Shown one piece after another: positions 1,068 to 50,492 of a DNA stretch of 64,000 bases. Source of the DNA: a virus (Duplodnaviria > Heunggongvirae > Uroviricota > Caudoviricetes); the IMG/VR virus record IMGVR_UViG_3300047554_000527, positions 8,387-72,386 of that record; one strand, 5' to 3'. Each line of letters starts with the position of its first letter. Positions within the stretch are counted from its first letter, which is position 1. The notes below the pieces were generated by a model. That model worked only from the letters and a program-made list of their open reading frames with translations. It did not search any database and was not told where the DNA came from. The translations under genes were made by a program, and so were the position numbers.

Positions 1068-1073
1068 ATAATT

Positions 1074-1163: not shown

Positions 1164-1170
1164 ATTAAAT

Positions 1171-1246: not shown

Positions 1247-1258
1247 ATTAAACTTCTT

Positions 1259-1333: not shown

Positions 1334-1349
1334 ACCAAAGAAGTCTATT

Positions 1350-1426
1350 TGGCACCCGCGGAAGGATTCGAACCTCCGACTCCTACGTTCGTAGCGTAGT
1401 ACTCTAATCCACTGAGTTACGCGGGC
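1350..1426 (-). tRNA. tRNA-Arg (ACG)
   Basis: T-arm 1361-1377, perfect anticodon arm 1383-1399 (codon CGT), acceptor 1354-1360/1420-1426. Confidence 0.65.
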
Positions 1427-1435
1427 ATTAAAAAT

Positions 1436-1509
1436 TGGCACCCCTACTTGGAATCGAACCAAGGACGACGAGTTCAAAGCCCGTTGTGTTACCATTACAC
1501 CATAGAGGA
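1436..1509 (-). tRNA. tRNA-Gln (UUG)
   Basis: T-arm 1447-1463, anticodon arm 1468-1484 (codon CAA), acceptor 1440-1446/1503-1509 with unpaired U1-U72 and G73 (Gln-like identity). Confidence 0.55.
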
Positions 1510-1586
1510 ACAAAATAAACAGGTTGCTTTTTTACGGTTTAGATTAAAAGTCTAATGTAATATGTTTGCTGAACGCAACCTAAAAC

Positions 1587-1662
1587 TGGCACCATAGACG
1601 GGAATCGAACCCGCCGCTGCTTCATAGACAGTGAAGTATCACCCCCAGGTGGTCTCTATGGT
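1587..1662 (-). tRNA. tRNA-Asp (GUC)
   Basis: T-arm 1598-1614, perfect anticodon arm 1620-1636 (codon GAC), acceptor 1591-1597/1656-1662 perfect, G73. Confidence 0.6.
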
Positions 1663-1669
1663 ATAAAAC

Positions 1670-1744
1670 TGGAGCTCCGTGACGGACTCGAACCGCCATC
1701 GCCGGACTACAAAACCGGAATTCTAGCCTTTGAAATAACAGAGC
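1670..1744 (-). tRNA. tRNA-Thr (UGU)
   Basis: T-arm 1681-1697, anticodon arm 1702-1718 (codon ACA; 31-39 mismatch), acceptor 1674-1680/1738-1744. Confidence 0.55.
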
Positions 1745-1750
1745 ATAAAT

Positions 1751-1825
1751 TGGTATCGCGTACGGGAATCGAACCCGTCTCTTTGGCTTGAAGGGCCAAG
1801 GACCTACCCAGAAGTCCAACGCGAT
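1751..1825 (-). tRNA. tRNA-Glu (UUC), tentative (C instead of U at position 33)
   Basis: T-arm 1762-1778 perfect, perfect anticodon stem 1783-1787/1795-1799 (codon GAA), acceptor 1755-1761/1819-1825 perfect. Confidence 0.5.
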
Positions 1826-1831
1826 ATAAAT

Positions 1832-1907
1832 TGGTGGAAGCCGAGGGAATCGAACCCTTCTAGACAGGAATCTTGCAAGGATACCCCGTAGCCCACTACT
1901 GCCCCCA
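1832..1907 (-). tRNA. tRNA-like gene, isotype undetermined (canonical T-arm, acceptor 3' strand and CCA, but no canonical anticodon/D arms by hand)
   Basis: T-arm 1843-1859 with AATCGAA loop, tgg 1832-1834; 5' portion (GGGGGCAGTAGTGGGCTACGGGGTATCCTTGCAAG...) does not fold canonically. Confidence 0.3.
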
Positions 1908-2334
1908 ATTAAAAAACACACTATTGAGAATTCAACTCAAGTCCGCCTAGCGGTACGACGCTGTTAGTATGTTTGTTAATTGGCTCCGTATCTGGGTAAC
2001 GATCCCAGCTAATCATTGATTAACAGTCAAGTCCGTGCACCATGCTCGAATTCTACGGAATATAAATCTTGTAGGCTACGCTTTTCCAATTCGCCCCTAC
2101 TTGAGTTGCTCTGCTCTGTCACTGTGTTTTATTCTCTGCCTAGTTACAGTTCTAGTCAGCGGTTCGAGGTGTTTTTATTTGTAACACCTTACCTTCTCGG
2201 GTCACCGCCCCCGGCCTTGACGCTGAGGCTTGCGACACAGATTCGTTCTGTGCTGACGGGATTAAACAGGATAGCTTTTGTCGCTAGACAACCAAAAAGT
2301 TTAGCTTTGAAATTTGCTGTAACTATCCTAAAAC

Positions 2335-2408
2335 TGGTTCCTCCAACAAGAATCGAACTTGTAATGACCGGTTATCAGCCGATTGTTATACCATTTAACT
2401 ATAGAGGA
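2335..2408 (-). tRNA. tRNA-Ile (GAU)
   Basis: T-arm 2346-2362 perfect, anticodon arm 2367-2383 (codon ATC), D-arm GTTA/TAAC, acceptor 2339-2345/2402-2408, A73. Confidence 0.6.
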
Positions 2409-13418: not shown

Positions 13419-14138
13419 ATGTTAGAAATTTTATTATACACACTCGTCGTCACACAGATTACTATTGCATCTGTCACATTGTATCTGCACCGTGGTCAAG
13501 CACACAGGGCAGTAACATTCCATCCTGTAGTAGATCATTTCTTTAGATTATGGCTATGGCTTACAACAGGCATGAATACCAAGGAGTGGGTTGCTATCCA
13601 CCGTAAGCATCACCAAGGTAGCGACACTCCTGAAGATCCGCATAGTCCTAAAGTATATGGACTATGGAGAGTACTATTCGGTGGAGCCTTTCTATATGTT
13701 AAGGCATCTAAGAATAGAGAGATGATTGAGAAGTTAGGAGTAGGTACTCCTGACGATTGGGTAGAACGCAAAATATATACAGCGCATCCTTGGTTAGGTA
13801 TCCTAACAATGCTGATCGTAGATCTTGTTCTTTTCGGGGCTGTGGGTATAGTTGTATGGGGCGTTCAAATGATATGGATCCCGTTCTGGGCTGCAGGAGT
13901 AATTAACGGCCTAGCACATTCTGTAGGATATAGAAATCATGAAGTACCTGATACTAGCCGTAATTTGTTGCCTATTGCTATTTGGATTGGCGGTGAAGAA
14001 CTCCATAACAACCACCATGGAAAAGGTTCAGCAGCGAAATTTAGTCATAGATGGTTTGAGTTTGACATTGGGTGGTTCTACATCAAAACCTTAAGCGCTA
14101 TTGGGCTTGCAAAGGTTAGACCATCGAGCGCCGTTTAA
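13419..14138 (+). CDS. membrane fatty-acid (acyl-lipid/acyl-CoA) desaturase
   Basis: histidine boxes HRKHH and HNNHH, multiple TM segments. Confidence 0.7.
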   Translation: MLEILLYTLVVTQITIASVTLYLHRGQAHRAVTFHPVVDHFFRLWLWLTTGMNTKEWVAIHRKHHQGSDTPEDPHSPKVYGLWRVLFGGAFLYVKASKNREMIEKLGVGTPDDWVERKIYTAHPWLGILTMLIVDLVLFGAVGIVVWGVQMIWIPFWAAGVINGLAHSVGYRNHEVPDTSRNLLPIAIWIGGEELHNNHHGKGSAAKFSHRWFEFDIGWFYIKTLSAIGLAKVRPSSAV

Positions 14139-14238: not shown

Positions 14239-16299
14239 TCACTTGCTAGTCGCTCTGTAAATTCCGTCCCAATCTTTTGGTAGATCATGAGTTCTCATCT
14301 CCTCGATACGTTCTAACCACAGTTCGTAATAATGATCCATCTGACCATCAAACTCGCCCATTAGTTCTCGACACTGCTCTGCTGCCTTGTCCCACTGTTG
14401 TTTTCTATAGTAGGCTAACATTAGATCGTGTAGCTCTTTTGCCATGACATATTCTGCCATAGCTCCGGCATCTGTGTGTAACAGAGGTGTGTAGATGTTT
14501 AAGCCGATTGCCTTGCCTTTAACAGCAATACAATCTAACTCTAGACAGAAAAAGTCGTCTTTGACTTCATCATATGTTGAAGGACCGATGATTACTAATA
14601 CACCGTAACCTTTTGTCTGCCCTTCTAAACGGCTGGCAACTGATACAGGGTCACCTAATACATCGTAACCCATTTTGCCCTGTGCGCCAATGTTACCTAC
14701 TAGGATCTTACCTGTATTAACACCTGCACCCATACCTACTGGAGGTTTGCCAATGGCTTCTAATTGCTTGTTGAATTCTTCAACAGCCTTAATCATTTCA
14801 ATTGTAGTTTTAACAGCGCGGTAAGCATGACGATCGTCATCTAATGGAGCGCCGTGAATATGTAAGGATGCATCGCCGATAAACTTGATTAGGCATCCGT
14901 CGTTAGCAAATACAGGCTGAGCAATAGCAGTCATGTATTCGTTCATGATCTTAGTAAAGCCTTCTACATCTGCTCCATACTTCTCACCTAGTCCTGTAAA
15001 GTTACGCATGTCTGTCATAACTGCGGTCAGTATCTTTTCCTCACCGCCCAGCTTGATAAGATCTGGATTCTTTTGTAAGCGCTCAACTATAACTGGACTT
15101 ACATAACTTCCAAACTGTTTCTTGATCTGTTGCTTCTGTAAGAACTCACTTACAAACTTGACGCCATAGGCATGCAGAGCGACCAATACTGTGCCAGCGG
15201 TAAAGACAGTAGTGTCGAATAAGAATAAAAAGTTATTGAAAGCGTAGCGACTAGCAAGATAGCCCCCAACAGCAATAACAATTGTCGTTGCCAATCCAAC
15301 ATATACATACCTCGTTAAAAATAGTAAAATCAATCCTGCTACTAGAATAGCAATAATTTCTACACCGTCAGCGTAGTCTGGACGTTGTATAACAACATTA
15401 TTGATCATAGTTCCGACAACTGCTGCCTGTACTTCGTGTGGCCAAACTGCTCCTAGTGAAGTTGGTAAAGGGTTGCCAATACCTGCGGCTGTCGGTCCTA
15501 TGATAACAATAGCCTTTTCTAAATCTTTTGGTAACTTGCTTAAACTAAAGCTACGACTCTGCTGACTCCAGTCAATCCATACGCGACCTAGACTGTCTGT
15601 AGTAACAGGACCGTAAGCAGGAATACGCATTTTCTCTACACCGTTCTCATTCAACTTTACTTGGAAGGTCGAATCGCCGGCCGCTACGCGGAGTGTTTCC
15701 ATAGCTAGACTAGGGTATAACTTACCATCAACTGTGACAATCAAAGGTAATCGACGATTTACACCATCTACTTCGGGCAATGTGCCAGTTATGCCAACCC
15801 CTACTGCTGAATTTTCTAGTGCAGGTACGTTTGCAATAAGTCCCGGGTATTGAACAATTTGATCTAAGAACTCTGGGCCTAGTACAGCCGATCCTGGAAC
15901 ACGTGGTGTATTCTTAGTTTGTTGTGCAGGAGCACTGCCTAGAACTACTGGGAACTCTTTTAGAGTTTGACCCAGCTGACTGTCACCACCTGTACGGTCT
16001 GCTTCTGGCATGAGTACGTTAAGTACAACAAGGCCTGCGTTCCTCTGATATAGATCTCGTATAATTTCACTGTATCGTGCTCTAGGTAGTGGCCACTGTC
16101 CGTATTTGTCCAATGCTGCCTCATCAATATTTACAGTTACAATATTGTTGTAAGTTGGCTCTTTGGCAGTAATTAATGTGTCAAAATAACGTAGTCTTAC
16201 GCTTTCGACAAAAGTGGGATCTGCTACACGTATGCCCAGTACTAACGCTAAGGTCAGTAGAGCAGTCCAGGGGCTGGTTAGAACTTTTTTAAACATCAA
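14239..16299 (-). CDS. CHASE2 sensor domain-containing class III adenylate/guanylate cyclase
   Basis: N-terminal signal/TM then periplasmic domain, TM cluster, C-terminal cyclase core (...MTDMRNFTGL..., ...FIGDASL...). Confidence 0.7.
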   Translation of the reverse strand: MMFKKVLTSPWTALLTLALVLGIRVADPTFVESVRLRYFDTLITAKEPTYNNIVTVNIDEAALDKYGQWPLPRARYSEIIRDLYQRNAGLVVLNVLMPEADRTGGDSQLGQTLKEFPVVLGSAPAQQTKNTPRVPGSAVLGPEFLDQIVQYPGLIANVPALENSAVGVGITGTLPEVDGVNRRLPLIVTVDGKLYPSLAMETLRVAAGDSTFQVKLNENGVEKMRIPAYGPVTTDSLGRVWIDWSQQSRSFSLSKLPKDLEKAIVIIGPTAAGIGNPLPTSLGAVWPHEVQAAVVGTMINNVVIQRPDYADGVEIIAILVAGLILLFLTRYVYVGLATTIVIAVGGYLASRYAFNNFLFLFDTTVFTAGTVLVALHAYGVKFVSEFLQKQQIKKQFGSYVSPVIVERLQKNPDLIKLGGEEKILTAVMTDMRNFTGLGEKYGADVEGFTKIMNEYMTAIAQPVFANDGCLIKFIGDASLHIHGAPLDDDRHAYRAVKTTIEMIKAVEEFNKQLEAIGKPPVGMGAGVNTGKILVGNIGAQGKMGYDVLGDPVSVASRLEGQTKGYGVLVIIGPSTYDEVKDDFFCLELDCIAVKGKAIGLNIYTPLLHTDAGAMAEYVMAKELHDLMLAYYRKQQWDKAAEQCRELMGEFDGQMDHYYELWLERIEEMRTHDLPKDWDGIYRATSK

Positions 16300-16303: not shown

Positions 16304-18316
16304 TTATTGACGTATAACGGTGTTACATCCTGCCGGATTAGTGCAACTTTGTATAAGAGTAAAGCTCTTTCCGCCTGATTGTTCTACATCAACAGTAGCG
16401 GCTCCGCCTGCATTTGTAACGTCTATTCTTGCGTTATTTCCGCCTGAACCGTATTGATTTACCAGTACATTATGCCCGTTACCTGTCATTCTTACATCTA
16501 AATAGTGCTGTCCAGCGCCGGACTGTGTAGTAGTTAAAGTGTTGTTATCACCATTTACAGTGCTGAATAATAGTCTATTGTTATTGTTGCTCTGCGTGTG
16601 ATTGACGATATTGTTATTACCACTAATTGTTGTTTCTGTGTAGTTGGTTCCGATAGTGTTAGTCTGGCTAGATGTTAGGCTGTTGTTATATCCATTTACA
16701 TCTGCTTTGATATAGTTCGATCCTACTTGTGTGATACCAATAGTATTTGTGCCAGCACCGTCGAGAGTTAGCTCTGTACGATTTTTACTGCCAGATAAGT
16801 TGATATTAACTGTGTTATTATCTCCACCTATTTGTGTAACATGTACAGCATTGTTATATGTTTGTGCTGTATTGGCCCAAGTTGAGATTCTAGAATTTTG
16901 AGCAGTCCTATCGTTGTTGTTAGTAAATGATGTGCCGCTTTGTAGTGTTTGATTGCTAGGAGAGCCCGACTGTGTAATAGTTCCGCCTTGAATAGTAGGA
17001 GCTGCTGCCGCCTGTACTGGATCAACTGGAGTAGTAGTTCCGCCTGTCGCTGAACTTGTTGTTGAATTATTAGCATCGTAGTAATATGTAATTTCACTGA
17101 TCTGCATACTGTCGCAGTCTAATCCACAGCCTGTTCCTGCTTTTGTACTAGGAAAGAAAATATAGTAATAAACGTAAGCAGAAGAATTAGTAACGTTAAT
17201 CATACTGCTAGTTGTTAAACGACTATCAGTTAATGATAGGTTACCTTCTTGTATTAGTACCCAATTTACACCATCGTTACTACCATATAACTTATAGCTT
17301 GTGGGATCTCGCCCACTAAAATCGTTAGCGGTAGTAATAGTAAAACCATTGACTACTCGACCTGTGTTTAGTTTAACAGTAACACCTGCATTTAATTTGT
17401 CAAAGTTTAAGTACTTAGTGTTTGGATTATTGTCGAACGCATTGGCAGCACCTTCACCTGCCGGACTGTTATTACTCGTTGGCCATATGTTAGTAATTTT
17501 AACTGTGGAGTTATCAAAATATATAGGTGTAGGTTGAGGAGTTGGAGTTCCAGCAGTAGCGCCTGTACCAGCATTAGTTACGGTCATTGTGTTGTTATAT
17601 CCGCCAGCCTGGCCGCTAGTTGTTCCACCTGTCGCACTTGGACCTCCACCGTTGGCGTTAGCAACTAAGCCAACTGTGCTAGAACCTGGCACACCATCAC
17701 TATTAACAATACAGGCATTTGATCCTCCCCAAGCACCTTGGCAAGCACCAAATCCTGGACTACTTGTCCAACCTTGTGCTGTTATGCCGTTGTAAGGTCC
17801 AAACTCTGGGTTGTATGTTAAGTTGCCTCCCCCGTTTAGTGTAAAGGTAGGAGCACGATACCAAGGACCATAATCCCCTGCCCAATAACTTCCATCAATG
17901 CCGTACATGCTAACTTTAGCATAAGCAACCTGTGATGCTTGTGCTGAAGTTAATGTTGAACTAACAGTAAGTGTTGTCCAGGGCACACTTGTATCAATAC
18001 ACGGATTACCGCAAATAGCATTTGGGTTTGGTAAGTTAGCACTATGGGCAGTTGCTACTTGAGTTATTAATCCTCCACTGCTGTTGTAGAATTCTATCTT
18101 AACGTTGGCTGTATCACTTTGGCCGGCACGGCCGCCACCGTTGTGTGCCAGGACACTAAAGGTAAATGTACCTCCAGCCTGCATAGCAGAATTAAAAACT
18201 ACATGCTGACTAATTGTTGTAGTAACATACGCAGTGGCAATAGCATTATAACCTGTCTGAGCTTGCGAACTAAAACAGAGTGCTAGTAGAAAAAGTTGTA
18301 GTAAATATTTTATCAT
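16304..18316 (-). CDS. secreted protein with F5/8 type C (discoidin) domain and C-terminal curlin (CsgA-like) repeats
   Basis: signal peptide MIKYLLQLFLLALCFSSQA; discoidin-like NAFDNNPNTKYLNF...YKLYGSNDGVNW; repeats VNQYGSGGNNARIDVTNAGGAATVDVEQSG matching curlin Q-x-G-x-G-N-x-A pattern. Confidence 0.6.
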   Translation of the reverse strand: MIKYLLQLFLLALCFSSQAQTGYNAIATAYVTTTISQHVVFNSAMQAGGTFTFSVLAHNGGGRAGQSDTANVKIEFYNSSGGLITQVATAHSANLPNPNAICGNPCIDTSVPWTTLTVSSTLTSAQASQVAYAKVSMYGIDGSYWAGDYGPWYRAPTFTLNGGGNLTYNPEFGPYNGITAQGWTSSPGFGACQGAWGGSNACIVNSDGVPGSSTVGLVANANGGGPSATGGTTSGQAGGYNNTMTVTNAGTGATAGTPTPQPTPIYFDNSTVKITNIWPTSNNSPAGEGAANAFDNNPNTKYLNFDKLNAGVTVKLNTGRVVNGFTITTANDFSGRDPTSYKLYGSNDGVNWVLIQEGNLSLTDSRLTTSSMINVTNSSAYVYYYIFFPSTKAGTGCGLDCDSMQISEITYYYDANNSTTSSATGGTTTPVDPVQAAAAPTIQGGTITQSGSPSNQTLQSGTSFTNNNDRTAQNSRISTWANTAQTYNNAVHVTQIGGDNNTVNINLSGSKNRTELTLDGAGTNTIGITQVGSNYIKADVNGYNNSLTSSQTNTIGTNYTETTISGNNNIVNHTQSNNNNRLLFSTVNGDNNTLTTTQSGAGQHYLDVRMTGNGHNVLVNQYGSGGNNARIDVTNAGGAATVDVEQSGGKSFTLIQSCTNPAGCNTVIRQ

Positions 18317-19428
18317 CTCTGTACAATAGTAATAATTGTATTACCGCCCGAATTAACTCTGTTCTTAAATTCAATACTACCCTGAATCTGTGTTATTACA
18401 CTGTTTTGTGTAAGAGGAGTTGTGACACATTGTAAGTCACTACCGTTATCTCTACAAAGACCTACTTGACCTTCGTCTTTGGTTACAACTATTCCGCTGG
18501 ATCTACGCCAGTCGGGCAATACACTATCTACATCATCTTTTAGATAATCTTCATCTAATCCATTTCCAATAATGTCAAACAAACTGTCTAAGAAATGATT
18601 GTCTAAAAAGTTACGAGTTAGTCTATCTTGAAAGAATTGTGCGTTCTGTTGATCTAGTTTGTTTTCTAATCCTTGCTCTCTTAAGAAATCGACATCTAAT
18701 ACATTAACTGTCGAAGCTGAATCTTTTTTGCTTGCTTGTTTTAATTCTAGGGGTGGGCTAAGAATTAAAAGATTGCTCATAGCATCTTCACTTAGATTTA
18801 AAATTATTGGTCTAGTAGGTTGAGCACTTCTGCTATTAACCTTAGTTGCTTGGAAAGGTTGATTAAGAATAACTTGCCCAACGTCAGTTTCAACAATAAT
18901 AGTGCCAGTAATACAGTTAGCTTCTATATCACGTTTAGATCTAGTAGGACGGTCGTTGGGACAACTAGGTAATAGTACAACTGTGCTAGCACCTACTTCA
19001 TCTACTGTGGCTGTAAAATCTGTACCACGAACACTGATAGTAGCAGTAGGAGTATTAACAGCTACGTTTTGCGGCGAGTTTTTAGCAATTTGGCCGCTGG
19101 CGTACCTAACAGTGCCCAGTGCCACCTTAACGCCCAACTTACCAGCCTTACTTTTAGGATCATATACAAAGTCATCAATTACTAGTCTTGAGTTTTCATT
19201 AACCTGTACTCGAGTCTGATCCTCGAAGGTTATTCCAACTTTGCCCGCCGCTGTCTTTACTGAATCGTTCATCTCGACTCCTGTGCCCTTGTTGGCCGTT
19301 AGCGTCGAGTTCTTGCGCTGTATGCTGGGAGGTGTGTTCAGCAACTCGGTCACTGTTCCTATATTGGCATGACTGCTCAATGAGAAACTCGTCAATAAGC
19401 CTAATAAGATTAAGCGACATAGTGTCAT
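18313..19428 (-). CDS. secreted protein of unknown function within curli-like operon
   Basis: signal peptide MTLCRLILLGLLTSFSLSSHA; 371 aa; 4-nt overlap with flanking genes. Confidence 0.4.
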   Translation of the reverse strand: MTLCRLILLGLLTSFSLSSHANIGTVTELLNTPPSIQRKNSTLTANKGTGVEMNDSVKTAAGKVGITFEDQTRVQVNENSRLVIDDFVYDPKSKAGKLGVKVALGTVRYASGQIAKNSPQNVAVNTPTATISVRGTDFTATVDEVGASTVVLLPSCPNDRPTRSKRDIEANCITGTIIVETDVGQVILNQPFQATKVNSRSAQPTRPIILNLSEDAMSNLLILSPPLELKQASKKDSASTVNVLDVDFLREQGLENKLDQQNAQFFQDRLTRNFLDNHFLDSLFDIIGNGLDEDYLKDDVDSVLPDWRRSSGIVVTKDEGQVGLCRDNGSDLQCVTTPLTQNSVITQIQGSIEFKNRVNSGGNTIITIVQR

Positions 19429-20281: not shown

Positions 20282-21193
20282 TTATTTGGTCCTAATTTCT
20301 TTGCTTCCTTCAGCATTTTTTCCGTTGCCGGACTGTTCCGTTGGGGGAGTTGCTTCTGCGGCTCCTTTACTCTCGGTCGTCTTTTGAACCAGCTCATTTT
20401 TATCTCCTTTGTAGTTCCAAAGCCCTTTACGAGCTCCATCTTTAATTAGCTCAACTACTCCGGCTTCGATTGCGGCCTTGACAGCATAAGTGCCCGGCTC
20501 GTTAATCGTTAAACCTGCTTCACCCTCAAACGCTTTAGTTCCCATATCAAAAAACTTCAATGCTGTTACCGCATCAGCACTACTGATGATTGTTTTTTGT
20601 ACGGTTACTGATGTAAGAACTTTACCAGTATTCACGCTAACTGCTCGCAAACTGATAGTAACTACATCCTGACTCCACTGTGTCTGTTTGCCTATTCCAA
20701 AAACTCTGGCTCCGATGCCACCGCTTTTAATAGAGCTATCATACCCAATAATACCGCCTTCTATAATAATCCCTGCAAACTGCATGGGCATTAAAGGTTT
20801 TGCGTTGTTGCCTTCATATGCTTCGCGCATCTGACGGATAATTAATCTTTCTTTAGTTAAGTTGTCAATACCTACACGCTCAACAACATCAAACCAACGA
20901 CCGCCACCTACATCTTGTAGGGCTTTAATCAAGAAGCTTTCCGCCCCTTGTGTTACTGCTGTACTTAAACTAGCAATGTTAGCCTGAGGGCGACGTTGTC
21001 CTGTTAGATCTCTAAAACTATAAACTGCTACACTTACTGGCCTTTCTGCTGCCGGTAATGGAACGGTATCAAATTCTTTCTGCATTACGCTAGAAGGAAT
21101 TGTTGGCATCTCTTCAAGAAGCCCATCTTGCTGTGTTATTGCACAGCCTGTTAATAAACTTGTGATTGCTAGAGTTAATAGTGTCTTTTTCAT
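20282..21193 (-). CDS. csgG: curli production assembly/transport lipoprotein CsgG
   Basis: lipobox LLTGC; extended colinear similarity to E. coli CsgG (...VAVY.F.D.TGQ..., ...A.VMVEGSIIGY.SNVKSGGVGARYFGIG..., ...NEPV..C.M.AIE.GV..LI.DG...GLW). Confidence 0.8.
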   Translation of the reverse strand: MKKTLLTLAITSLLTGCAITQQDGLLEEMPTIPSSVMQKEFDTVPLPAAERPVSVAVYSFRDLTGQRRPQANIASLSTAVTQGAESFLIKALQDVGGGRWFDVVERVGIDNLTKERLIIRQMREAYEGNNAKPLMPMQFAGIIIEGGIIGYDSSIKSGGIGARVFGIGKQTQWSQDVVTISLRAVSVNTGKVLTSVTVQKTIISSADAVTALKFFDMGTKAFEGEAGLTINEPGTYAVKAAIEAGVVELIKDGARKGLWNYKGDKNELVQKTTESKGAAEATPPTEQSGNGKNAEGSKEIRTK

Positions 21194-21194
21194 A

Positions 21195-21683
21195 TTATAC
21201 TCCAGGAATTACGAAACTACTTAACGGAACATCAATTTGTGTATTAATGCCCGGGCCGATAACAGTTAATCTAATCATTTCATTAAGATCAGCATCGACT
21301 ACTTTTTGCCAACTAATTCTGTTACCTTGGAAATCTATTTCACCCCTACATTGATCAACAGGAGTAGAAGTAGTACAACCATTGTTGGCAAACATAGCAG
21401 TAGCTACGTTTTGGCTGATCTGTGCGTAGATACGCGACTCTAAGTTACTGATAAACTTAGCTAAGTTAGTGTTCTTTTTGTCTGCTATTTCTTTATCGAT
21501 AGCAGCTTGAATTTTGTCTTGTAAAGCCTTTCTGCGTGTAGCTTCTTGGTTCTCAATAGTTAAGACGTGACTGCTATAGCCTGCGCCGTTAAACGCAGGG
21601 CTTTTAAACGTAAAATCGTTAATTGGTGCAGCCGTTGCTGTTAGTGTTGCAGACAAGGCCAGACCGAGAAATATTAATCGCAT
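21195..21683 (-). CDS. CsgF-like curli assembly protein
   Basis: signal peptide; mature N-terminus INDFTFKSPAFNGAGY resembles CsgF TMTFQFRNPNFGGNP; immediately upstream of csgG. Confidence 0.45.
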   Translation of the reverse strand: MRLIFLGLALSATLTATAAPINDFTFKSPAFNGAGYSSHVLTIENQEATRRKALQDKIQAAIDKEIADKKNTNLAKFISNLESRIYAQISQNVATAMFANNGCTTSTPVDQCRGEIDFQGNRISWQKVVDADLNEMIRLTVIGPGINTQIDVPLSSFVIPGV

Positions 21684-22806: not shown

Positions 22807-23475
22807 TTATTTACCTATTTCTGGGAACAGCACTTCATCAACGAAATCACGGATAACAGGTTCAGGAACACCCATGGCAATCATGCTACGATAAACATGT
22901 GGGTTTTTCTTTTGATTAATGCAGTAGAAATTTTGACGATCTTTAGAATTGGCAGTGCCCTTGCGATTGACGTTGCTAATATAGTATTCTAGGGTTTTTA
23001 AACCTAGGCTAACAAATTGATCAATTTCACTAGATTCTGTAAGATTGCCGGCAGCTACCATACTAGGGCTAAAGATGTTACTAGCCCACTCAGGCAGCTC
23101 ACGCTTTTTGTTCCACGTGATATCTTTAACTTCGTTAGCAAACCAATCATGCATTGTGTGTTGATTACTAACTAGGCTGAAGTCGTGGAATGCACCTGTG
23201 ATCTTGTTTTTACCGCAGACAGTATCGAACCCCCAAATAGGCGTATCGTCATCAGCATGTGGAAATACTGTAGCGTGTAGAATATAAATTCCGTGGCTTT
23301 CAGTTTTATCTACAATCTCAATGTGTGCTCTACGATAAGTTTCTGCATAATAGACATGATTTTCCCATGTGTATTTTGCATCGTGTTCTGGATTTCTGTG
23401 TAGTGTGCCAGTACGTGCAAATATCTTTTGTATTTCATCTGCACATGCTCGCATCTTTTCCCATACATGACTCAT
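22807..23475 (-). CDS. ferredoxin-dependent bilin reductase (FDBR family; PebB/PebS/PcyX-like), copy 2
   Basis: 222 aa, paralog of upstream FDBR (shared W.NKV...YRR.HI..VD......HC.VFPH......PI.GFD.V.GKNKITGAFHDFS...); ATGA overlap. Confidence 0.65.
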   Translation of the reverse strand: MSHVWEKMRACADEIQKIFARTGTLHRNPEHDAKYTWENHVYYAETYRRAHIEIVDKTESHGIYILHATVFPHADDDTPIWGFDTVCGKNKITGAFHDFSLVSNQHTMHDWFANEVKDITWNKKRELPEWASNIFSPSMVAAGNLTESSEIDQFVSLGLKTLEYYISNVNRKGTANSKDRQNFYCINQKKNPHVYRSMIAMGVPEPVIRDFVDEVLFPEIGK

Positions 23476-24155
23476 TGCGTTTCTCCTATCTTAGGAAAAA
23501 GACACTGCTGTATGAATACCTGCACATCTTCAGGATTAAGCCCTAACGCTGTCATAACCTTGGGAGTGTGCGGATTTAGTCTTTGATTGTCGCAGTAATA
23601 GTCTTGTGCGGACTGTGTATCTACTGCTGTATTGTTTGATAGGCCTACATTATCTAGGTAGTATCTAAGATCGTTAATAGCTGTTAGATACAGTTGATTT
23701 ATTTCTTCAGGATCTTGTACGTTGCCTGCAGAAATCATACTAGGTGTAAAGATACGTTCCGCCCAGTCTGGTAAGCGTCTAACTTTATTCCATTCTAGTT
23801 TTTGTGCAGAATCTGCAAACCAGTCGAGCATGAAGTGTTCGGGATCACCTGCAGGACTAAAGTCATGGAATGCACCTGTAATTTTATTTTTTCCTGCTAC
23901 TACATCAAAACCGAATATAGGTGCAGGATTGTGAGTATGGGGGAACACACAACAATGCATCATCCAGAGACCGCGAGTTTCCCTAGCATCAACGACGTCG
24001 ATGTGTGCTCTCCTATAAAGACTACTGGTCCAAACTTTGTTGTACCAATTGAATCTGTCTAGTCCAGGCTCTTGTATTTCTTGCCCGGTGCTGTTGAACA
24101 GCCTCTCAAATTCTTGCTGAATATCAATCAGCGTTGGCCAAACTAAGTTCGTCAT
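23472..24155 (-). CDS. ferredoxin-dependent bilin reductase (PebA-like), copy 1
   Basis: 227 aa FDBR-fold signature; immediately downstream of heme oxygenase as in cyanobacterial ho1-pebA-pebB clusters. Confidence 0.65.
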   Translation of the reverse strand: MTNLVWPTLIDIQQEFERLFNSTGQEIQEPGLDRFNWYNKVWTSSLYRRAHIDVVDARETRGLWMMHCCVFPHTHNPAPIFGFDVVAGKNKITGAFHDFSPAGDPEHFMLDWFADSAQKLEWNKVRRLPDWAERIFTPSMISAGNVQDPEEINQLYLTAINDLRYYLDNVGLSNNTAVDTQSAQDYYCDNQRLNPHTPKVMTALGLNPEDVQVFIQQCLFPKIGETQ

Positions 24156-24672
24156 TGTAGCTGTTCATAATTTTAATTGCCCAGTCAAAGGCCACGTTTG
24201 CTTCTTCTGCCATGCTGTCGTCTAGCATAGCACGAATTTTTTCTTTAAGGCCTTCGACATCATTAAAATCTAAGTTACGATGAGGAGCATTAATTACTTT
24301 TCTAATCATTTGACCGCCGAACAAGTCTCCCATGTGCCATGTGTAAAGATGTGCGGTAATCTTTGCTGGTTGTCCTACAAGGTCTAGGATATAACGACTG
24401 TAGGCAATAGTCTCAGGACGAAGTCTAGGATAGACCCCGTTATTCATCTCTTTAGCATCAAGGTACAGTTTTAATGCTCGTTCGATTTCTAACATGTCTG
24501 TTGTAAGTCCGGCATCTCTTGCAACAGTTTCGATACTGGCATAGAAGTTAGACTTTTGATAGGTATAGTCTGCCCAAACTTCAATTGGCATGTTTCTTTT
24601 AAACACTGCCTTCATGAATTTAGTTTCTTCTGCGGCTGTATGACTGTCTTTGGTTAGCTCTTTTAAACTCAT
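24124..24672 (-). CDS. heme oxygenase
   Basis: 182 aa; HO-like N-terminal LKE.T...H...E...FMK motif and overall length. Confidence 0.6.
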   Translation of the reverse strand: MSLKELTKDSHTAAEETKFMKAVFKRNMPIEVWADYTYQKSNFYASIETVARDAGLTTDMLEIERALKLYLDAKEMNNGVYPRLRPETIAYSRYILDLVGQPAKITAHLYTWHMGDLFGGQMIRKVINAPHRNLDFNDVEGLKEKIRAMLDDSMAEEANVAFDWAIKIMNSYNDELSLANAD

Positions 24673-26246: not shown

Positions 26247-26672
26247 TTACTTGATGGCAATCATGCGAGGCTTGAGTGCTTCAGGTACTTCACGTGTTAG
26301 TTTAACACGAAGAATACCGTTTGTCAATTCTGCATCGCCCACGATGATATAATCAGCAAGTGTAAAGCTACGCTCAAAATCTCGAGCAGCTAGACCACGA
26401 TGTAGATACTTGCTAGCATCTTCATCTTTTAGACGCTGTCCTCGGATAGTGAGTTGGTTTTGATCAACTTCAATAGTGATATCCTCGCGATCAAACCCTG
26501 CAACAGCGATTTCAACTTCAAAAGTGTTGTCGTCGTGTTTTAGGACATTGTATGGTGGATAGTTGTGTTGAGCGGAGTTTGCAAAGCGTCTTTCAGCATC
26601 TGTGAAAATACGATCAAATCCGATAAGAGCTCTGTTTAGAGCAGAAGTGTCAAAACGAGTAATTGCGTTCAT
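26247..26672 (-). CDS. small heat-shock protein Hsp20 (IbpA-like)
   Basis: alpha-crystallin domain; start ATG 26672 after AGGAGA SD giving MNAITRFDTSALNRALIGFDRIF (IbpA-like N-terminus). Confidence 0.65.
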   Translation of the reverse strand: MNAITRFDTSALNRALIGFDRIFTDAERRFANSAQHNYPPYNVLKHDDNTFEVEIAVAGFDREDITIEVDQNQLTIRGQRLKDEDASKYLHRGLAARDFERSFTLADYIIVGDAELTNGILRVKLTREVPEALKPRMIAIK

Positions 26673-26752
26673 AGTTTTTCTCCTTAATAAGCAAGAACGT
26701 TTGGGCATTGTGCCCGATTTGTAAGACCCATTATGGCGTCCTACAAATTTAT

Positions 26753-46459: not shown

Positions 46460-46651
46460 TCAAATCTGAACTACGGTCCAACGGTGTGTAAAATGCTTAC
46501 CTTCGGCCTTGCGTTTCAGTATCTTCGCAAACTCTTTTTTACGGAGTTTGGCGATGGTTTCTGTATCATGGTCGAAGCAAGCCTTAAACAACTTGGAAAC
46601 TAGTTTCTTTTGTTTCATAGTCTTGCCCCTCCTTGAAAAATATTTATGCAA
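46460..46651 (-). CDS. hypothetical protein
   Basis: 63-aa basic ORF. Confidence 0.25.
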   Translation of the reverse strand: MHKYFSRRGKTMKQKKLVSKLFKACFDHDTETIAKLRKKEFAKILKRKAEGKHFTHRWTVVQI

Positions 46652-47549
46652 AAATTTCTAATGCTGTTCCGCATTGGCTACAGAACTTAGCACTGTGCTT
46701 GTTCTGATGACCGCAGGTTACACATTTAGGCTTTGCTTTAACAGTGACAGGCTCAGTTACAGGCTTGTTATGTCCGAGGTCGCCGACAATGCGTAGAACA
46801 ATATTGTGCTTGGTAGGATCAAGTGCGCCTACTGTAGTAGTCTGGAAACTCTGTGTGCTCTTGCTACCTGCTACAGTGATACCGGTTTCATTAGCACACC
46901 AATCCATTGTGGCCATACCATCGTGTAGTTCAGTTGCATTTGGAATAGCCTTGTCGATTGCGGCACTAGCAGATGCCTGCATGGCGGCACCGTTGGCACT
47001 GAAATCAACACCACGCATTGCTCCACCGACATTAGTAGAGTATGTAGCGCCGCTGGCCTGAATCCAGCTATTTCCACTAGTTGTAGAATACTTATCAACA
47101 ACACCTGGATACTCACTATTCAGTCCGCGAACGCCCGGTGGGTAGTGTGGGAATGTATTACTACCAAAGATCTGGTTAATGTTGATAACAGGACGCGGTA
47201 GTTCAAACTGATACTCAATACGGATCAGCCCGTCCTCTTCTTTAATACCACGTGGACCGTTTTCGACTGCGGCAGTGCGTTCAATAAACTTGAACTTGTT
47301 GCCTTCGGATAAGTCGCCGTTCTTAATCCAACGCTCAAGATCGACTGATCGACCCGGGTCTATGACCAATCCGCCAGGAACGGCATTCTCGCCATCGATA
47401 AAAACATTAACGATAGCTCGAACTGTATTTAGGTTTTTTAGTAAAATGCTATATTCGCTGGCAAATGGAATATAGACTGTGTCTTTAAATTCGCGGAGAA
47501 TTTTGCCTTTTGATTTAATAGAGGCTACTAGTTTTTGATTGTACATCAT
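46644..47549 (-). CDS. hypothetical protein with C-terminal zinc ribbon
   Basis: C-terminus CVTCGHQNKHSAKFCSQCG. Confidence 0.4.
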   Translation of the reverse strand: MMYNQKLVASIKSKGKILREFKDTVYIPFASEYSILLKNLNTVRAIVNVFIDGENAVPGGLVIDPGRSVDLERWIKNGDLSEGNKFKFIERTAAVENGPRGIKEEDGLIRIEYQFELPRPVININQIFGSNTFPHYPPGVRGLNSEYPGVVDKYSTTSGNSWIQASGATYSTNVGGAMRGVDFSANGAAMQASASAAIDKAIPNATELHDGMATMDWCANETGITVAGSKSTQSFQTTTVGALDPTKHNIVLRIVGDLGHNKPVTEPVTVKAKPKCVTCGHQNKHSAKFCSQCGTALEIFA

Positions 47550-47626
47550 TTTTCTTCCTTTTTACTGCACACAGACTAAGTGCATATTAGTTAAAGTCTG
47601 TTGGTTTGTAGGACCTTCCTACAAAT

Positions 47627-47812
47627 TTATTTAGTGTCGTTATCTAACCCGAACACAAATTTGATTCTGTTTGCGGCTACCTGTCCATCGTAGCGAGTGT
47701 TTTCACAAATATCAATACACTCTTCAACGATCAGTTTAGCAAACTCTTCATAGTCAAAATTGCTATAGGGTTTATAGCATTTGATCATTATTTCTTTAAT
47801 TTTTTCGTTCAT
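47627..47812 (-). CDS. hypothetical protein
   Basis: 61-aa ORF. Confidence 0.25.
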   Translation of the reverse strand: MNEKIKEIMIKCYKPYSNFDYEEFAKLIVEECIDICENTRYDGQVAANRIKFVFGLDNDTK

Positions 47813-48093
47813 TCTTTCGTCCTCAACATTTCAAACAACTCTTTACCGAGTTTGTTTTTAAACTCTTCTTCAGTCATATCCACAAGGACTTCCTTAGCCA
47901 GTTCCATAGGCAAGGCTAATGTTATTATCATTTCTGGAGCAAAGGTATTTGGATTTGCTTTTATGTGTCTGCTGATTAATCTCATTTTGTAATCCTAAAT
48001 CCCACGCACCACAAATCGATGCGGGCAAACCAATTGCCATCGTTTTTACCAAATCCAATGCGTAGCATACGATTGTCTTTGTCTAAATCAAGT

Positions 48094-48327
48094 TTAACTA
48101 GTTGCATTAACTTTTTTATCCATAGTGGGTGCAATTTTTTCTGCTTCTGCTTCAGAAACAAATCGTGGAGGGTCATTCGCCCAATGAGGCATCCATTGCC
48201 ATCCCCATGTCTTCCAATATTTTGCTATTAGATTGTTAGCGATTAGAACTGCTCCTAAAATTACTAAACCACCAAGTGCTGTTAAAACTGAACCGGCCAA
48301 AAATACTGCCGCTTGATCCATGTCCAT
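48094..48327 (-). CDS. small membrane protein
   Basis: hydrophobic LAGSVLTALGGLVILGAVLIA helix. Confidence 0.3.
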   Translation of the reverse strand: MDMDQAAVFLAGSVLTALGGLVILGAVLIANNLIAKYWKTWGWQWMPHWANDPPRFVSEAEAEKIAPTMDKKVNATS

Positions 48328-48345
48328 ATTATCTCCTTGTTAATT

Positions 48346-48420
48346 GGTGCGCTAGGCGGGAATCGAACCCGCGATTCAGAGTTTTAGAGGCTCCTGCTAT
48401 GCCACTTAGCTACTAACGCA
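48346..48420 (-). tRNA. tRNA with anticodon CUA (amber/UAG-reading suppressor tRNA candidate)
   Basis: perfect T-arm GCGGG-TTCGATT-CCCGC, 7-bp acceptor GCGTTAG/CTAGCGC, encoded CCA, A73; anticodon stem GGAG/CUCU(+C-A) with 7-nt loop C-U-CUA-A-A. Confidence 0.5.
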
Positions 48421-48429
48421 ATGAATTTA

Positions 48430-48813
48430 TTATACACTATCATGCGAATATGTCAAGACATCAAATAGCTCAGCATACTCAACTTGAGGCTCCATGTGAA
48501 AGCCTGTACCCCACACTACCCACACCCTCCTCTTATATACCTTTCTACCCCAAATCTTTTTCCCCCCAACAGTCTTAACTGGTAACCAAGCAAATACTTC
48601 ACGCCACGGATAGCAACCAGCACCGTCTGTAATAACAGTATATTCCATGTACTTCTTTCCAGGACTAGGATTGAATTTTTCTGCGCCTCTATAACTCATT
48701 CTTGCCTTATGTAGTTCTATATTGAACCCTATGCTCCGGCCCCATACTATCTTCATTTGACCAATGATTCGACGATACGATATTGACGAATTGCTTCTTC
48801 TACATTTTGCCAA
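48430..48813 (-). CDS. hypothetical protein
   Basis: 127-aa ORF. Confidence 0.35.
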   Translation of the reverse strand: MAKCRRSNSSISYRRIIGQMKIVWGRSIGFNIELHKARMSYRGAEKFNPSPGKKYMEYTVITDGAGCYPWREVFAWLPVKTVGGKKIWGRKVYKRRVWVVWGTGFHMEPQVEYAELFDVLTYSHDSV

Positions 48814-49106
48814 GCAATATCCAATGCTGGATTAGGTGTTTCTTTCATTTTGTGCAACTGAACACTGGGAGGATCTTGGTCTGTCCAATCATCGGGCGTA
48901 GCATCTGTCCAATAATAGACAATAGCATAACTACTGCTAAGGGATTGATAAGTGCGCCACTCGTTTATTTTCTTGTCGTAATAGACATAGCCGTGGTCGC
49001 TATCACCATCTGCCTTGCCGCCCATTCCCCAACCGCGATAACATAGATAGTATCCCGAATTATCAGGTTGCCGTTGTTCTGTACGATGCCAAATGCTTGT
49101 TCTCAT
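48753..49106 (-). CDS. hypothetical protein
   Basis: 117-aa Trp/Tyr-rich ORF. Confidence 0.35.
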   Translation of the reverse strand: MRTSIWHRTEQRQPDNSGYYLCYRGWGMGGKADGDSDHGYVYYDKKINEWRTYQSLSSSYAIVYYWTDATPDDWTDQDPPSVQLHKMKETPNPALDIAWQNVEEAIRQYRIVESLVK

Positions 49107-49411
49107 AATTCGGGTATTTTTACAATGTGATCTGGAATTGAGTGAAAGATTTGAAGTATCTTTAAATCATCACCGTACTTTAATTTTAGCATAGATTCTT
49201 GTTTATCGCAAGTTGTTGTAATTCGTATAAAAGGACTTCCTGCACCCACATGCCATTGAGATCCGTCGGTTGCGGTAATGACCTGTGGTTCCGGTACTAC
49301 GACTTCTACATGACATTCTAGACCAATAATGAATGTAGCATCGATCACTGTAGCGTCAGGTCTGTGTAAGGCCCAAATTTTTCTTTTAATCATACCCATC
49401 TCAATATACAC
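49103..49411 (-). CDS. hypothetical protein
   Basis: 102-aa ORF, 4-nt overlap packing. Confidence 0.35.
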   Translation of the reverse strand: MYIEMGMIKRKIWALHRPDATVIDATFIIGLECHVEVVVPEPQVITATDGSQWHVGAGSPFIRITTTCDKQESMLKLKYGDDLKILQIFHSIPDHIVKIPEL

Positions 49412-49620
49412 ATCGCAGCAACCTTTTCATCATAGAACCAAACATCCAGTTCTCGTTTGTCAATGGCTATCCGCATACTATAATGTCCTGGTTGCCAATC
49501 AGTTGCTTCATCTAGCCAATCTCTTATAGTTTTGATTTCTTCAACCGCAAGATCAATTTCCCAAACATTACTAGTACGGAGAGGAATGACTACACGGTGT
49601 TCGAGATTATTCATGACCAC
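49390..49620 (-). CDS. member of paralogous small-protein family (C-terminal F..LRW motif)
   Basis: ends ...WFYDEKVAAMCILRWV. Confidence 0.45.
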   Translation of the reverse strand: MVMNNLEHRVVIPLRTSNVWEIDLAVEEIKTIRDWLDEATDWQPGHYSMRIAIDKRELDVWFYDEKVAAMCILRWV

Positions 49621-49877
49621 TTTAGGCTAAACAACACAGCATCTTTTTCTTTGGAAAACATCCAAATGCTTCCTCTACCTCTATATATGCCCGACAAGTT
49701 TGTTCTACACCATTCTTTAATATGATGTGCCTGTAGCTCATTCATCCTATCAGACCATTTCATTTTGACTTCAGTCCAGCCAATAGTCTTTAACATGTCG
49801 CACATAATTTCCCAGTCTATTTCTTCCTGGATCATCTTAGCCATATCTTCGACCATAGTTTCTTCAGTGTTTTTCAT
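49611..49877 (-). CDS. member of paralogous small-protein family
   Basis: ends ...HHIKEWCRTNLSGIYRGRGSIWMFSKEKDAVLFSLKWS. Confidence 0.5.
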   Translation of the reverse strand: MKNTEETMVEDMAKMIQEEIDWEIMCDMLKTIGWTEVKMKWSDRMNELQAHHIKEWCRTNLSGIYRGRGSIWMFSKEKDAVLFSLKWS

Positions 49878-49878
49878 A

Positions 49879-50208
49879 TTACATCCACCTTAGCGCAAAC
49901 ATGACAGCATCTTTCTCACGTTTGAATACAAACTTATTGTGGTTGTTGTTCCAATACCTTCCCTTGAAACGTTCCCAGCACCAACGTTCAGCTTCAGTAA
50001 TCTTGTCACGAGCAACGGTATATTGATAGGGCCAGTGTTTCTTGCTATAAGGTTTATTAAACCAATCGTAATAGTATTCTTTGAATAGACTTTTACCAGT
50101 TCCCATCATAGGTTGTACTCCTACAATCTGACTAGCTATTGTCTGCGGCATTATATTCCTTATGATGGGAATCATTACTTTCGGATCAGAAGTTGTGTTT
50201 ATAGCCAT
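49879..50208 (-). CDS. member of paralogous small-protein family
   Basis: ends ...ERWCWERFKGRYW...FVFKREKDAVMFALRWM. Confidence 0.5.
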   Translation of the reverse strand: MAINTTSDPKVMIPIIRNIMPQTIASQIVGVQPMMGTGKSLFKEYYYDWFNKPYSKKHWPYQYTVARDKITEAERWCWERFKGRYWNNNHNKFVFKREKDAVMFALRWM

Positions 50209-50492
50209 TTTAAATAGTAAATTACTGCATCTCGTTCAGGAACATAGAATTCGATATCGCTCAGACCAATCTGCCACAAAGGCCAATCTGTATGATCTTG
50301 CCACACACTACAATTCTTTTGTATCCAATCACAGCGTTCCCACCATGTTATTCTGTCGGTGATGCGGACAAGTGCCCACTCCACTTGATCAAGAAGAATG
50401 TCAGATATTTGTCCGGAACATCCAGGGTCCATTCTAGTTCCTTCGACCACTCTTGAGGTAGTATGCTCATAGCATGAATCAATTCGGCACAT
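50199..50492 (-). CDS. member of paralogous small-protein family
   Basis: ends ...EFYVPERDAVIYYLKWL. Confidence 0.45.
   Translation of the reverse strand: MCRIDSCYEHTTSRVVEGTRMDPGCSGQISDILLDQVEWALVRITDRITWWERCDWIQKNCSVWQDHTDWPLWQIGLSDIEFYVPERDAVIYYLKWL

Follow-up and report, generated by a model that had tools for sequence, protein, structure and literature searches.

The 64,000-nucleotide window, the whole stretch of DNA that was analysed, comes from a large uncultured phage and carries a tRNA gene. With about even confidence, we take this gene to be a functional suppressor of amber (UAG) codons in a phage that has kept the standard code. Phage suppressor tRNAs have been proposed as an entry point to stop-codon reassignment. 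Those of this sort are already known, and the window adds one to a widespread phage-only family. The locus joins an uncultured, large aquatic phage to a family with the cultured members XacN1, RAS14, and Arash, which makes it accessible to testing. Three regularities mark the family: an A/C mismatch at positions 31:39, a dedicated near-leaderless promoter, and absence from cellular genomes. The mismatch and the near-leaderless promoter are the features most worth experiment, and the former offers a mutable handle on the tuning of a suppressor against release factor 1 (RF1), with a bearing on code evolution and on suppressor design. The features of the locus are as follows.

48345 to 48419, minus strand: tRNA gene, anticodon CUA (reads UAG), A73, encoded CCA (ARAGORN, Rfam, covariation in 36 homologues)
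48385 to 48387, minus strand: anticodon C34-U35-A36, TAG on the plus strand (ARAGORN, which sets the anticodon at position 33; Rfam alignment; sequence)
48382 to 48390, minus strand: anticodon loop and its closing positions, with the mismatch C31 (48390)·A39 (48382) (Rfam, minimum-energy fold)
48429 to 48456, minus strand: sigma-70-type promoter, TTGACA-16 nt-TATAAT, 12/12 consensus positions (promoter scan)
48094 to 48327, minus strand: 77-aa ORF with one hydrophobic helix and an AAGGAG ribosome-binding site (ORF list, sequence)
47627 to 48176, minus strand: three small ORFs of 64, 58, and 61 aa between the tRNA unit and the 301-aa gene (ORF list)
46644 to 47549, minus strand: gene of a 301-aa protein with a C-terminal zinc ribbon, its only Pfam match
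24 to 2408, minus strand: main array of 18 sense tRNAs, 46 kb from the suppressor (ARAGORN, Rfam)

A canonical tRNA gene with a CUA anticodon

Analysis of the whole window by ARAGORN yielded 19 tRNAs, the array of 18 and one apart from it, a single tRNA of 75 nt on the minus strand with the anticodon cta. A preliminary description of this DNA, made from the sequence, had reported a well-formed tRNA far from the main array; it had left the strand unstated and had given the span as 48346-48420, one base too high. The Rfam tRNA model RF00005 matched the gene with 62.2 bits (gathering threshold 29; E = 4e-11 over the window). The match spans 48348-48419 and model positions 1-71 of 71, i.e. the full length, and ranks fourth by score among the 17 Rfam tRNA matches in the window. 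Two independent finders thus concur on a well-formed tRNA at a position well removed from the array.

Reading of the sequence confirmed the structural elements noted before, namely a 7-bp acceptor stem (GCGUUAG/CUAGCGC, with one wobble, U4·G69), the discriminator A73 followed by a CCA present in the DNA, and a T arm (GCGGG-UUCGAUU-CCCGC) with perfect pairing. The D stem, GCUA/UAGC, comprises 4 bp, G18 and G19 are present, the variable loop has 5 nt, and the tertiary partners U8-A14, G15-C48, and A26-G44 are all there. In the Rfam alignment the anticodon loop reads C32-U33-C34-U35-A36-A37-A38, in agreement with ARAGORN and with the hand folding of the preliminary description, which had feared a shift of register to UCU or UAA or a low tRNA score. 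Either of the shifted registers would place C instead of U at position 33, while U33 and A37 flank the anticodon in the CUA register only, and CUA is therefore the only canonical register. We concluded that the gene encodes a canonical tRNA with a CUA anticodon. The loop CUCUAAA and its A36-A37-A38 context are those of supF.

ARAGORN assigned the name 'tRNA-Pyl', which reflects the CUA anticodon alone and carries no further meaning. Hallmarks of tRNA-Pyl are a small D loop without G18 G19, a 3-nt variable loop, a 6-bp anticodon stem, a non-canonical T loop, and one base between the acceptor and D stems. In the window tRNA, G18 G19, the 5-nt variable loop, and the T loop UUCGAUU are canonical, two bases (U8 A9) separate the acceptor and D stems, and the anticodon stem has 4 standard pairs. 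An identity as tRNA-Pyl was rejected on these grounds, the anticodon being the sole likeness. Neither pylS nor pylBCD was detected by Pfam or PHROGs among the 60 window ORFs scanned. A role as an integration-site tRNA was likewise rejected, given the full-length gene, its own promoter, and the context of a lytic-type jumbo phage; no integrase was found among the window ORFs tested.

The phage-only family and the genomic context of the gene

Scanning of IMG/VR with the acceptor and T-arm sequence yielded three homologues, all with a CUA anticodon. With the anticodon arm 24 loci were obtained, with the 3' half of this arm only 35 loci, and with 'TCTAAA' plus the T arm only at least 120 loci. More than 100 distinct CUA tRNAs were found across IMG/VR contigs, and many of the family loci reside on contigs of 100-500 kb. 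The pattern of arm plus T arm had no match in 185,579 bacterial and archaeal genomes, one per species. A BLAST search with the suppressor tRNA against E. coli genomes gave no match, and thus no host tRNA ancestor was found. Among cultured phages, BLAST retrieved related CUA tRNAs in XacN1 (two copies), Xoo-sp13, RAS14, CM1, Arash, and mycobacteriophages of the genus Bixzunavirus. The exact sequence of the suppressor tRNA occurred on three short metagenome contigs only. We define the family here by a 5'-GCG start, A73, CCA, the loop YUCUAAA, the pair G30-C40, and the T loop UUCGAUU. The window tRNA displays every family trait, including the A/C mismatch at 31:39 and the restriction to phages.

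In an alignment of 36 diverse homologues, 92.7% of the cells were paired and 135 cells had changed on both sides. The covariation score was not reached by any of 500 shuffles, and slid controls were about 40% paired. The acceptor, D, and anticodon stems covary, and U33, C34, U35, A36, A37, G30-C40, G18, and the T-loop core are invariant. Covarying stems in combination with invariant decoding residues indicate a working gene family and not decay. These comparisons establish a family restricted to phages and, by all signs in the alignment, maintained under purifying selection.

The -10 hexamer of the promoter ends 9 nt before the 5' end of the suppressor tRNA. On the minus strand of the window six perfect promoter matches were observed compared to 0.05 expected, this promoter being one of the six and the one upstream of rIIA another. 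A promoter with at least 10 of 12 matching positions occurred at the corresponding spot upstream of 26% of the family tRNAs, compared to 3% of other tRNAs. A consensus sigma-70 promoter is therefore dedicated to the suppressor tRNA, and the other consensus promoters of the window belong to its class. We infer that these are early promoters read by the host polymerase, and that the transcript of the suppressor tRNA has a leader of a few nucleotides only. Several of the promoters with 11 or 12 of 12 matching positions have a ...CAT... motif approximately 7 nt past the -10 hexamer. Both the promoter and the C31·A39 mismatch, which characterise the family, had been overlooked in the preliminary description. 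Its proposal of a candidate amber suppressor is borne out by the two finders, the covariation among homologues, the dedicated promoter, and the cultured relatives annotated as tRNA-Sup.

Just past the CCA an AAGGAG site follows, and the ATG of the 77-aa ORF occurs 17 nt after the CCA; this ORF is probably co-transcribed with the suppressor tRNA. No Pfam match was obtained for it. Its homologues adjoin a suppressor tRNA in several IMG/VR loci, including L128, L124, L072, L002, L001, and L022. Conservation of the three ORFs of 64, 58, and 61 aa is limited to near-identical metagenome contigs plus a few further loci. In many of the 39 loci in which the 301-aa gene was found (about 150 loci fetched), it follows the suppressor at a distance of 0.3-0.8 kb downstream. 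The protein has more than 4,300 metagenomic homologues, and a search of 50,697 cultured phage records gave it in none but XacN1, Xoo-sp13, CM1, and RAS14, the very four cultured jumbo phages (309-385 kb) that match the tRNA. In XacN1 the homologous gene adjoins the tail sheath gene. An AlphaFold model of the protein was of low confidence (mean pLDDT 46). This distribution assigns the window phage to a broad group related to XacN1. The synteny of tRNA and 301-aa gene may be due to common descent instead of a connection in function. On two syntenic contigs of 393 kb and 355 kb, no suppressor tRNA was present around the 301-aa gene within the 20 kb read. A search with the XacN1 sheath protein listed XacN1-like relatives only, and neither the suppressor tRNA nor the 301-aa gene was present in any of 80 IMG/VR sheath loci.

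By megablast, window positions 47000-50000 gave no match to cultured phages. The rIIA protein of the window phage is 32% identical to that of PA5oct, which is among its best, albeit distant, protein relatives; the exact rIIA protein occurred on one 6-kb Logan contig only, and the identical rIIA gene is present in SRR35181419. The curli-like genes match those of Pelagibacter and Methylophilales phages. Besides rIIA, the window encodes rIIB, NAMPT, NMNAT-Nudix, and a DNA methyltransferase. Its auxiliary genes include those for heme oxygenase, two bilin reductases, Hsp20, ketoacyl synthase, fatty acid desaturase, curli CsgG and CsgF, and a CHASE2 cyclase. No virion gene was detected by Pfam or PHROGs among the 60 window ORFs scanned.

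The copies in XacN1, Xoo-sp13, and RAS14 belong to the same family and share the ...GC-CUCUAAA-AC... arm with C31·A39 as well as the CCA. A73 is likewise common to them with the exception of one XacN1 copy, while CM1 is a BLAST match only. Their acceptor stems, GGCCCGU, GCUUUCG, and GCGCUUU, differ from the GCGUUAG of the window. Unlike in the window, the tRNAs of XacN1 are located in the terminal repeats, beside the tmRNA and far from the 301-aa gene, and the protein identity of the four jumbo phages to the window phage is only about 31-38%. The closest cultured sequence is the 'tRNA-Phe' of Arash (OQ632216.1, 49176-49247) with 83% identity over 70 nt. Its anticodon arm, GGAGC-CUCUAAA-ACUCU, is identical, and ARAGORN reads its anticodon as cta although it was deposited as tRNA-Phe. 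This copy adjoins tRNA-Lys and tRNA-Arg near a gene for peptidyl-tRNA hydrolase and has no 301-aa neighbour. The Arash phage itself, with 53% GC and an enterobacterial host, is unrelated to the window phage.

Use of UAG and the genetic code

The ORFs of the window had been described as intact under the standard code, and this was corroborated. In a greedy gene set, the standard code gave a coding density of 0.905; reading TAG as a sense codon raised it to 0.919, and these additional 1.4 points were all due to upstream extensions or spurious ORFs. A search of the window for ORF pairs joined in-frame by a single TAG, which had been suggested before, did not join any real gene. In-frame TAG codons were also screened for in 163 sequences totalling 1.54 Mb, which comprised the window and the loci of the tRNA together with regions of cultured phages and both syntenic contigs, by alignment to well-called genes of other loci, with only the best non-overlapping genes considered. 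No in-frame TAG was obtained in conserved genes of this set, the only signals being antisense artefacts of the 301-aa gene. A first, unfiltered version of the screen had been swamped by off-frame and antisense similarity between related loci. In tblastn alignments over 39 loci, the 301-aa gene had no internal stop. No release factor, aminoacyl-tRNA synthetase, or other 'code-change' gene was detected by Pfam or PHROGs in the 60 window ORFs.

The count of TAG stops, likewise suggested before, was run on the window. Of the non-overlapping genes with 100 aa or more, 39 end in TAA and 27 in TGA, and none of these 66 in TAG. Among mechanical ORFs of at least 50 aa, 55 of 276 end in TAG, nearly all of which overlap longer genes. 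The mean share of TAG stops was 5.3% in loci of the mismatch class, 10.6% in loci with a paired 31:39, and 14.2% in the remaining loci. The two syntenic relatives, for which the 20 kb fetched contained no suppressor tRNA, had 3 TAG stops among 63. Against the 5.3% baseline, the probability of finding 0 of 66 is about 0.03; the absence of TAG stops is thus only modestly unusual relative to a clade baseline of about 5%. The TAG-free pattern fits a genome adapted to its own suppressor, and is no proof of it.

A similar picture emerged from the cultured relatives. The 82 annotated genes in the first 50 kb of Arash have 50 TAA, 30 TGA, and 2 TAG stops, and genes of up to 3.5 kb annotated as structural are uninterrupted under the standard code. 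XacN1 uses the standard code with 18 amber stops in 592 genes, in-silico read-through of which gave no recognisable extensions and no targets (PMC5852040). A code change is not supported by the window, the related loci, or the cultured relatives, and the association with stop-codon recoding or a subset of late genes that had been raised in the preliminary description found no backing in the 1.54 Mb or in the standard-code relatives. By its sequence, the locus appears to represent a 'suppressor-bearing, standard-code' state as in XacN1 and Arash, and not a completed code change.

A code change might nevertheless be limited to late genes, with TAG read as sense in structural or lysis genes outside the window and the suppressor acting as the switch. 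Recoded gut phages (crAss-like, Lak, Garnet, and others) have in-frame TAG in structural and lysis genes, and some of them also possess a gene for RF2 or for a synthetase (Borges et al., Peters et al.). They likewise have CUA tRNAs of their own, whose expression is predicted to precede that of the genes reliant on them. The model of Borges et al. has the suppressor produced first and early genes that stay readable under the standard code, which agrees with a window of early and auxiliary genes only, all without TAG stops, and with the early type of the tRNA promoter. However, neither the in-frame TAG codons of the gut phages, in the 1.54 Mb screened, nor their RF2 or synthetase, among the 60 window ORFs, were seen here. 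Conserved genes were free of in-frame TAG throughout the related loci, and the uninterrupted 301-aa gene adjoins the tail sheath gene in XacN1. In addition, the cultured family members use the standard code. We therefore consider a late-gene code change unlikely.

The suppressor might alternatively serve programmed read-through of a few TAG-ending phage genes elsewhere in the genome, resulting in C-terminally extended isoforms in the manner of Qbeta A1. The few TAG stops that relatives retain (2/82 in Arash, 18/592 in XacN1) would be compatible with this, as would a 180-aa ORF in the relative L003 which ends in TAG and is followed by an in-frame extension of 50 codons. However, the window has no TAG-terminated real gene, and the amber stops of XacN1 led to no recognisable extensions in silico (PMC5852040), which renders programmed read-through quite improbable.

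In the reading that we prefer, a functional suppressor in a phage with the standard code, host RNA polymerase would transcribe the tRNA from the start of infection as a near-leaderless transcript. After maturation, the tRNA would be charged by a host aminoacyl-tRNA synthetase and compete with RF1 at UAG. The phage genes in the 64 kb use UAG neither as stop nor as sense codon and would thereby be insulated from the suppressor. Read-through would fall on mRNAs of the host or of competitors that end in UAG, and on amber mutations arising in the phage. The same competition with RF1 at UAG is expected of the E. coli amber suppressors supF (tRNA-Tyr), su7 (tRNA-Trp), and supE (tRNA-Gln). These classical suppressors arose by point mutation from sense tRNAs of the cell and have a normal 31:39 pair, whereas the window tRNA is a dedicated, conserved phage gene with a mismatch and with no cellular counterpart found.

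The 31:39 mismatch and the identity of the tRNA

The C31·A39 pair is non-canonical in the Rfam alignment, by which 4 standard pairs remain in the anticodon stem, and the minimum-energy fold of the tRNA has a 4-bp anticodon stem and a 9-nt loop. We compared this position among 105 distinct CUA tRNAs, i.e. distinct ARAGORN calls across all fetched loci, and the other tRNAs of the same loci. Of the CUA tRNAs, 48 had C·A and 11 had A·C at 31:39, 5 had a mismatch of another type, and 41 were paired in the standard way, whereas a mismatch occurred in only 25 of the 463 other tRNAs (5.4%; C·A in 2, A·C in 7). The difference was also apparent in an unbiased subset, loci first found by a scan without any constraint on the stem, in which 39 of 76 CUA tRNAs and 12 of 219 others had a mismatch (Fisher p = 2e-17). 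Within this subset the mismatch was seen in 18 different stem sequences, 13 of them with C·A and 5 with A·C, which indicates that it persisted while the neighbouring pairs changed on both sides. A GCG start was present in 31 of the 39 tRNAs of the mismatch class, and A73 plus CCA in 32. By this pattern, the 31:39 mismatch appears to be under selection in the CUA tRNA family. C·A or A·C accounted for 59 of 64 mismatches overall and for 36 of 39 in the unbiased subset. As both combinations are able to pair in a wobble-like manner, the position seems to be weakly paired and not opened into a larger loop.

According to a review (PMC11231383), how flexible the anticodon arm is, and hence how efficiently the tRNA decodes, depends largely on the 31:39 pair. 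In E. coli, this pair also shifts whether LysRS or GlnRS charges an amber suppressor (PMC1483225). In a non-exhaustive search of the literature we found no description of the 31:39 mismatch of phage CUA tRNAs. In the proposed suppressor, the A/C mismatch would leave a 4-bp stem and thereby a flexible anticodon arm, probably tuning the decoding of UAG. The mismatch could also weaken the tRNA instead of strengthening it.

Given its rarity in working elongators (5% of the other tRNAs on the same contigs), the mismatch might even mark a tRNA that does not decode at all, either a decoy for a host tRNA-targeting nuclease or tRNA-binding factor, or a decaying gene. However, U33, CUA, A37, A38, G18 G19, the T loop, and CCA are invariant in the 36 homologues, a decoy would need no fixed stop-codon anticodon, and the covariation of all other stems runs contrary to decay. 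A non-decoding tRNA is therefore a very unlikely explanation. The 9-nt loop of the minimum-energy fold might also be taken to read a four- or five-base codon starting with UAG and to shift the frame, as engineered tRNAs whose loop is enlarged to 8 or 9 nt are capable of reading quadruplet or quintuplet codons (quadruplet decoding by 8-nt-loop tRNAs is covered by a review), but this is hardly credible, as the mismatches are nearly all of the two types able to form a wobble-like pair and no window gene needs a frameshift at TAG.

A short anticodon stem has a possible parallel in Blastocrithidia, whose tRNA-Trp(CCA) reportedly has a 4-bp anticodon stem, the shortened stem enhancing stop-codon reading (Kachale et al. 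in 2023). Both tRNAs combine a weak or short anticodon stem with rivalry against a release factor at a stop codon. The Blastocrithidia case is eukaryotic and concerns a near-cognate tRNA on UGA in which the pair is deleted and not mismatched; the likeness is one of resemblance only. By extension of this parallel, the 31:39 mismatch might be a selected adaptation to competition with RF1, and the UAG-free early genomes of large aquatic phages such as this one might result from UAG reassignment, under way or done, in late genes outside the window. We regard this combined scenario as doubtful.

The mismatch is not confined to CUA tRNAs with this arm. In the IMG/VR scan, the 3' stem half of the anticodon arm recurred in tRNAs whose anticodons are those of Trp (CCA), Cys, Leu, and Arg. 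One 406-kb contig carries a Trp (CCA) tRNA with G73, the same arm, and the same C31·A39. The anticodon arm, CUCNAAA followed by A39 C40, thus resembles that of tRNA-Trp, a likeness which does not fix the ancestry of the gene. When the anticodon was masked, nearest-neighbour typing pointed to more than one isotype (Phe, Leu, and Met), with phage tRNA-Phe the nearest to the body of the tRNA. In E. coli, class I tRNAs with a CUA anticodon are mostly charged with Lys if they have A73, or with Gln. By these identity rules for CUA plus A73, the amino acid carried by the window tRNA would most likely be Lys or Gln.

The 301-aa protein, tmRNAs and peptidyl-tRNA hydrolase genes

The gene downstream of the suppressor tRNA encodes a 301-aa protein whose N-terminal domain is rich in beta structure, followed by a middle section of low complexity and a zinc ribbon at the C terminus.

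46644-47549, minus strand: gene of the 301-aa zinc-ribbon protein

More than 4,300 metagenomic homologues of this protein were obtained, with identities of 70-85%. The only cultured phages found to possess it are the four XacN1-like jumbo phages (XacN1, Xoo-sp13, CM1 and RAS14). The gene is present in 39 fetched loci, and in many of these it is located directly downstream of the suppressor tRNA. In XacN1, the tail sheath gene adjoins it.

tmRNAs or peptidyl-tRNA hydrolase genes were observed close to the 301-aa gene or to CUA tRNAs in several other phage sequences:

L162 9477-9947: permuted tmRNA with the tag ANDEQFALAA (JGI contig of 355 kb, in synteny with the window)
L006 4072-4492: tmRNA (XacN1)
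L005 358-510: gene annotated as peptidyl-tRNA hydrolase (Arash)
L009 853-1227: gene annotated as peptidyl-tRNA hydrolase (Mycobacterium phage Yucca)

On the syntenic contig, the tmRNA lies just upstream of the 301-aa gene; in many relatives this region holds the suppressor tRNA, at a distance of a few hundred bases from the gene. The tmRNA of XacN1 is located 1 kb from both of its suppressor tRNAs. tmRNA and suppressor tRNA may represent a recurrent pairing of termination-related RNAs. Arash and Yucca are unrelated cultured phages, and in each the annotated peptidyl-tRNA hydrolase gene occurs within about 1 kb of a CUA tRNA.

Unusual tRNA architectures in the window and its relatives

Bacterial tRNA-Leu is defined by a long extra arm. 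This arm is absent from the two tRNA-Leu genes of the window, each 78 nt in length, in which the variable loop comprises 5 nt:

24-101, minus strand: tRNA-Leu, anticodon UAA
111-188, minus strand: tRNA-Leu, anticodon UAG

In both, the D loop is still of Leu type (AAUUGGUAG) and A73 is retained. Of the 40 distinct tRNA-Leu in the full set of fetched phage loci, 27 display the short form, and the long arm is kept in every tRNA-Ser (25/25) and every tRNA-Tyr (12/12).

Features of the suppressor family were also observed in a tRNA of different specificity:

L048, at about index 1292 of the reverse complement, minus strand: tRNA-Trp, anticodon CCA, G73 (IMG/VR contig of 406,734 bp)

This tRNA has the AGAGC/ACUCU anticodon stem and the C31·A39 mismatch, both of which also occur in the suppressor family. 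With its weakened anticodon stem, it is reminiscent of the UGA-reading tRNA-Trp of Blastocrithidia.

Within the suppressor family itself, five IMG/VR members (L011, L012, L018, L019 and L021) form a sub-group with the non-standard D arm ACCG-ACGGU-CGGU, the loop of which comprises 5 nt. None of the five was called as a tRNA by ARAGORN; acceptor stem, anticodon arm, T arm, A73 and CCA are all intact. A further member, L015, likewise received no ARAGORN call and has a D arm different from that of the sub-group.

Auxiliary genes, promoters and small ORFs of the window

Auxiliary genes are densely packed in the window and include the following:

13419-14138: fatty acid desaturase
14239-16299: CHASE2 sensor fused to a nucleotide cyclase
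20282-21683: curli secretion components CsgG and CsgF
22807-24672: heme oxygenase and two ferredoxin-dependent bilin reductases
26247-26708: Hsp20

A protein from the curli region (18313-19428) has its nearest relatives in Pelagibacter phage HTVC008M and Methylophilales phage Melnitz, suggesting that the host is aquatic. An Rfam match to the L31-Firmicutes ribosomal protein leader (14434-14462, minus strand) falls within the CHASE2-cyclase ORF. It scored 33.5 bits (gathering threshold 33.3) and has almost certainly arisen by chance.

Between 3199 and 58759, the minus strand carries six perfect TTGACA-N16/17-TATAAT sequences and nine matching at 11 of 12 positions, and two more occur on the plus strand of the window, compared to about 2.5 expected in total. 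Examples on the minus strand are:

58759-58731
44221-44193
38352-38324
35854-35826
32493-32465

These promoters look like a class of consensus early promoters. At several of them, a CAT-containing motif is located about 7 nt past the -10 hexamer.

A run of small ORFs just upstream of the tRNA unit resembles a family of tandem paralogues:

49390-50492, minus strand: four ORFs of 76, 88, 109 and 97 aa in succession

At their C termini, all four ORFs have a common motif that reads approximately (K/R)DAV-x-(F/Y)-x-L-(K/R)-W.
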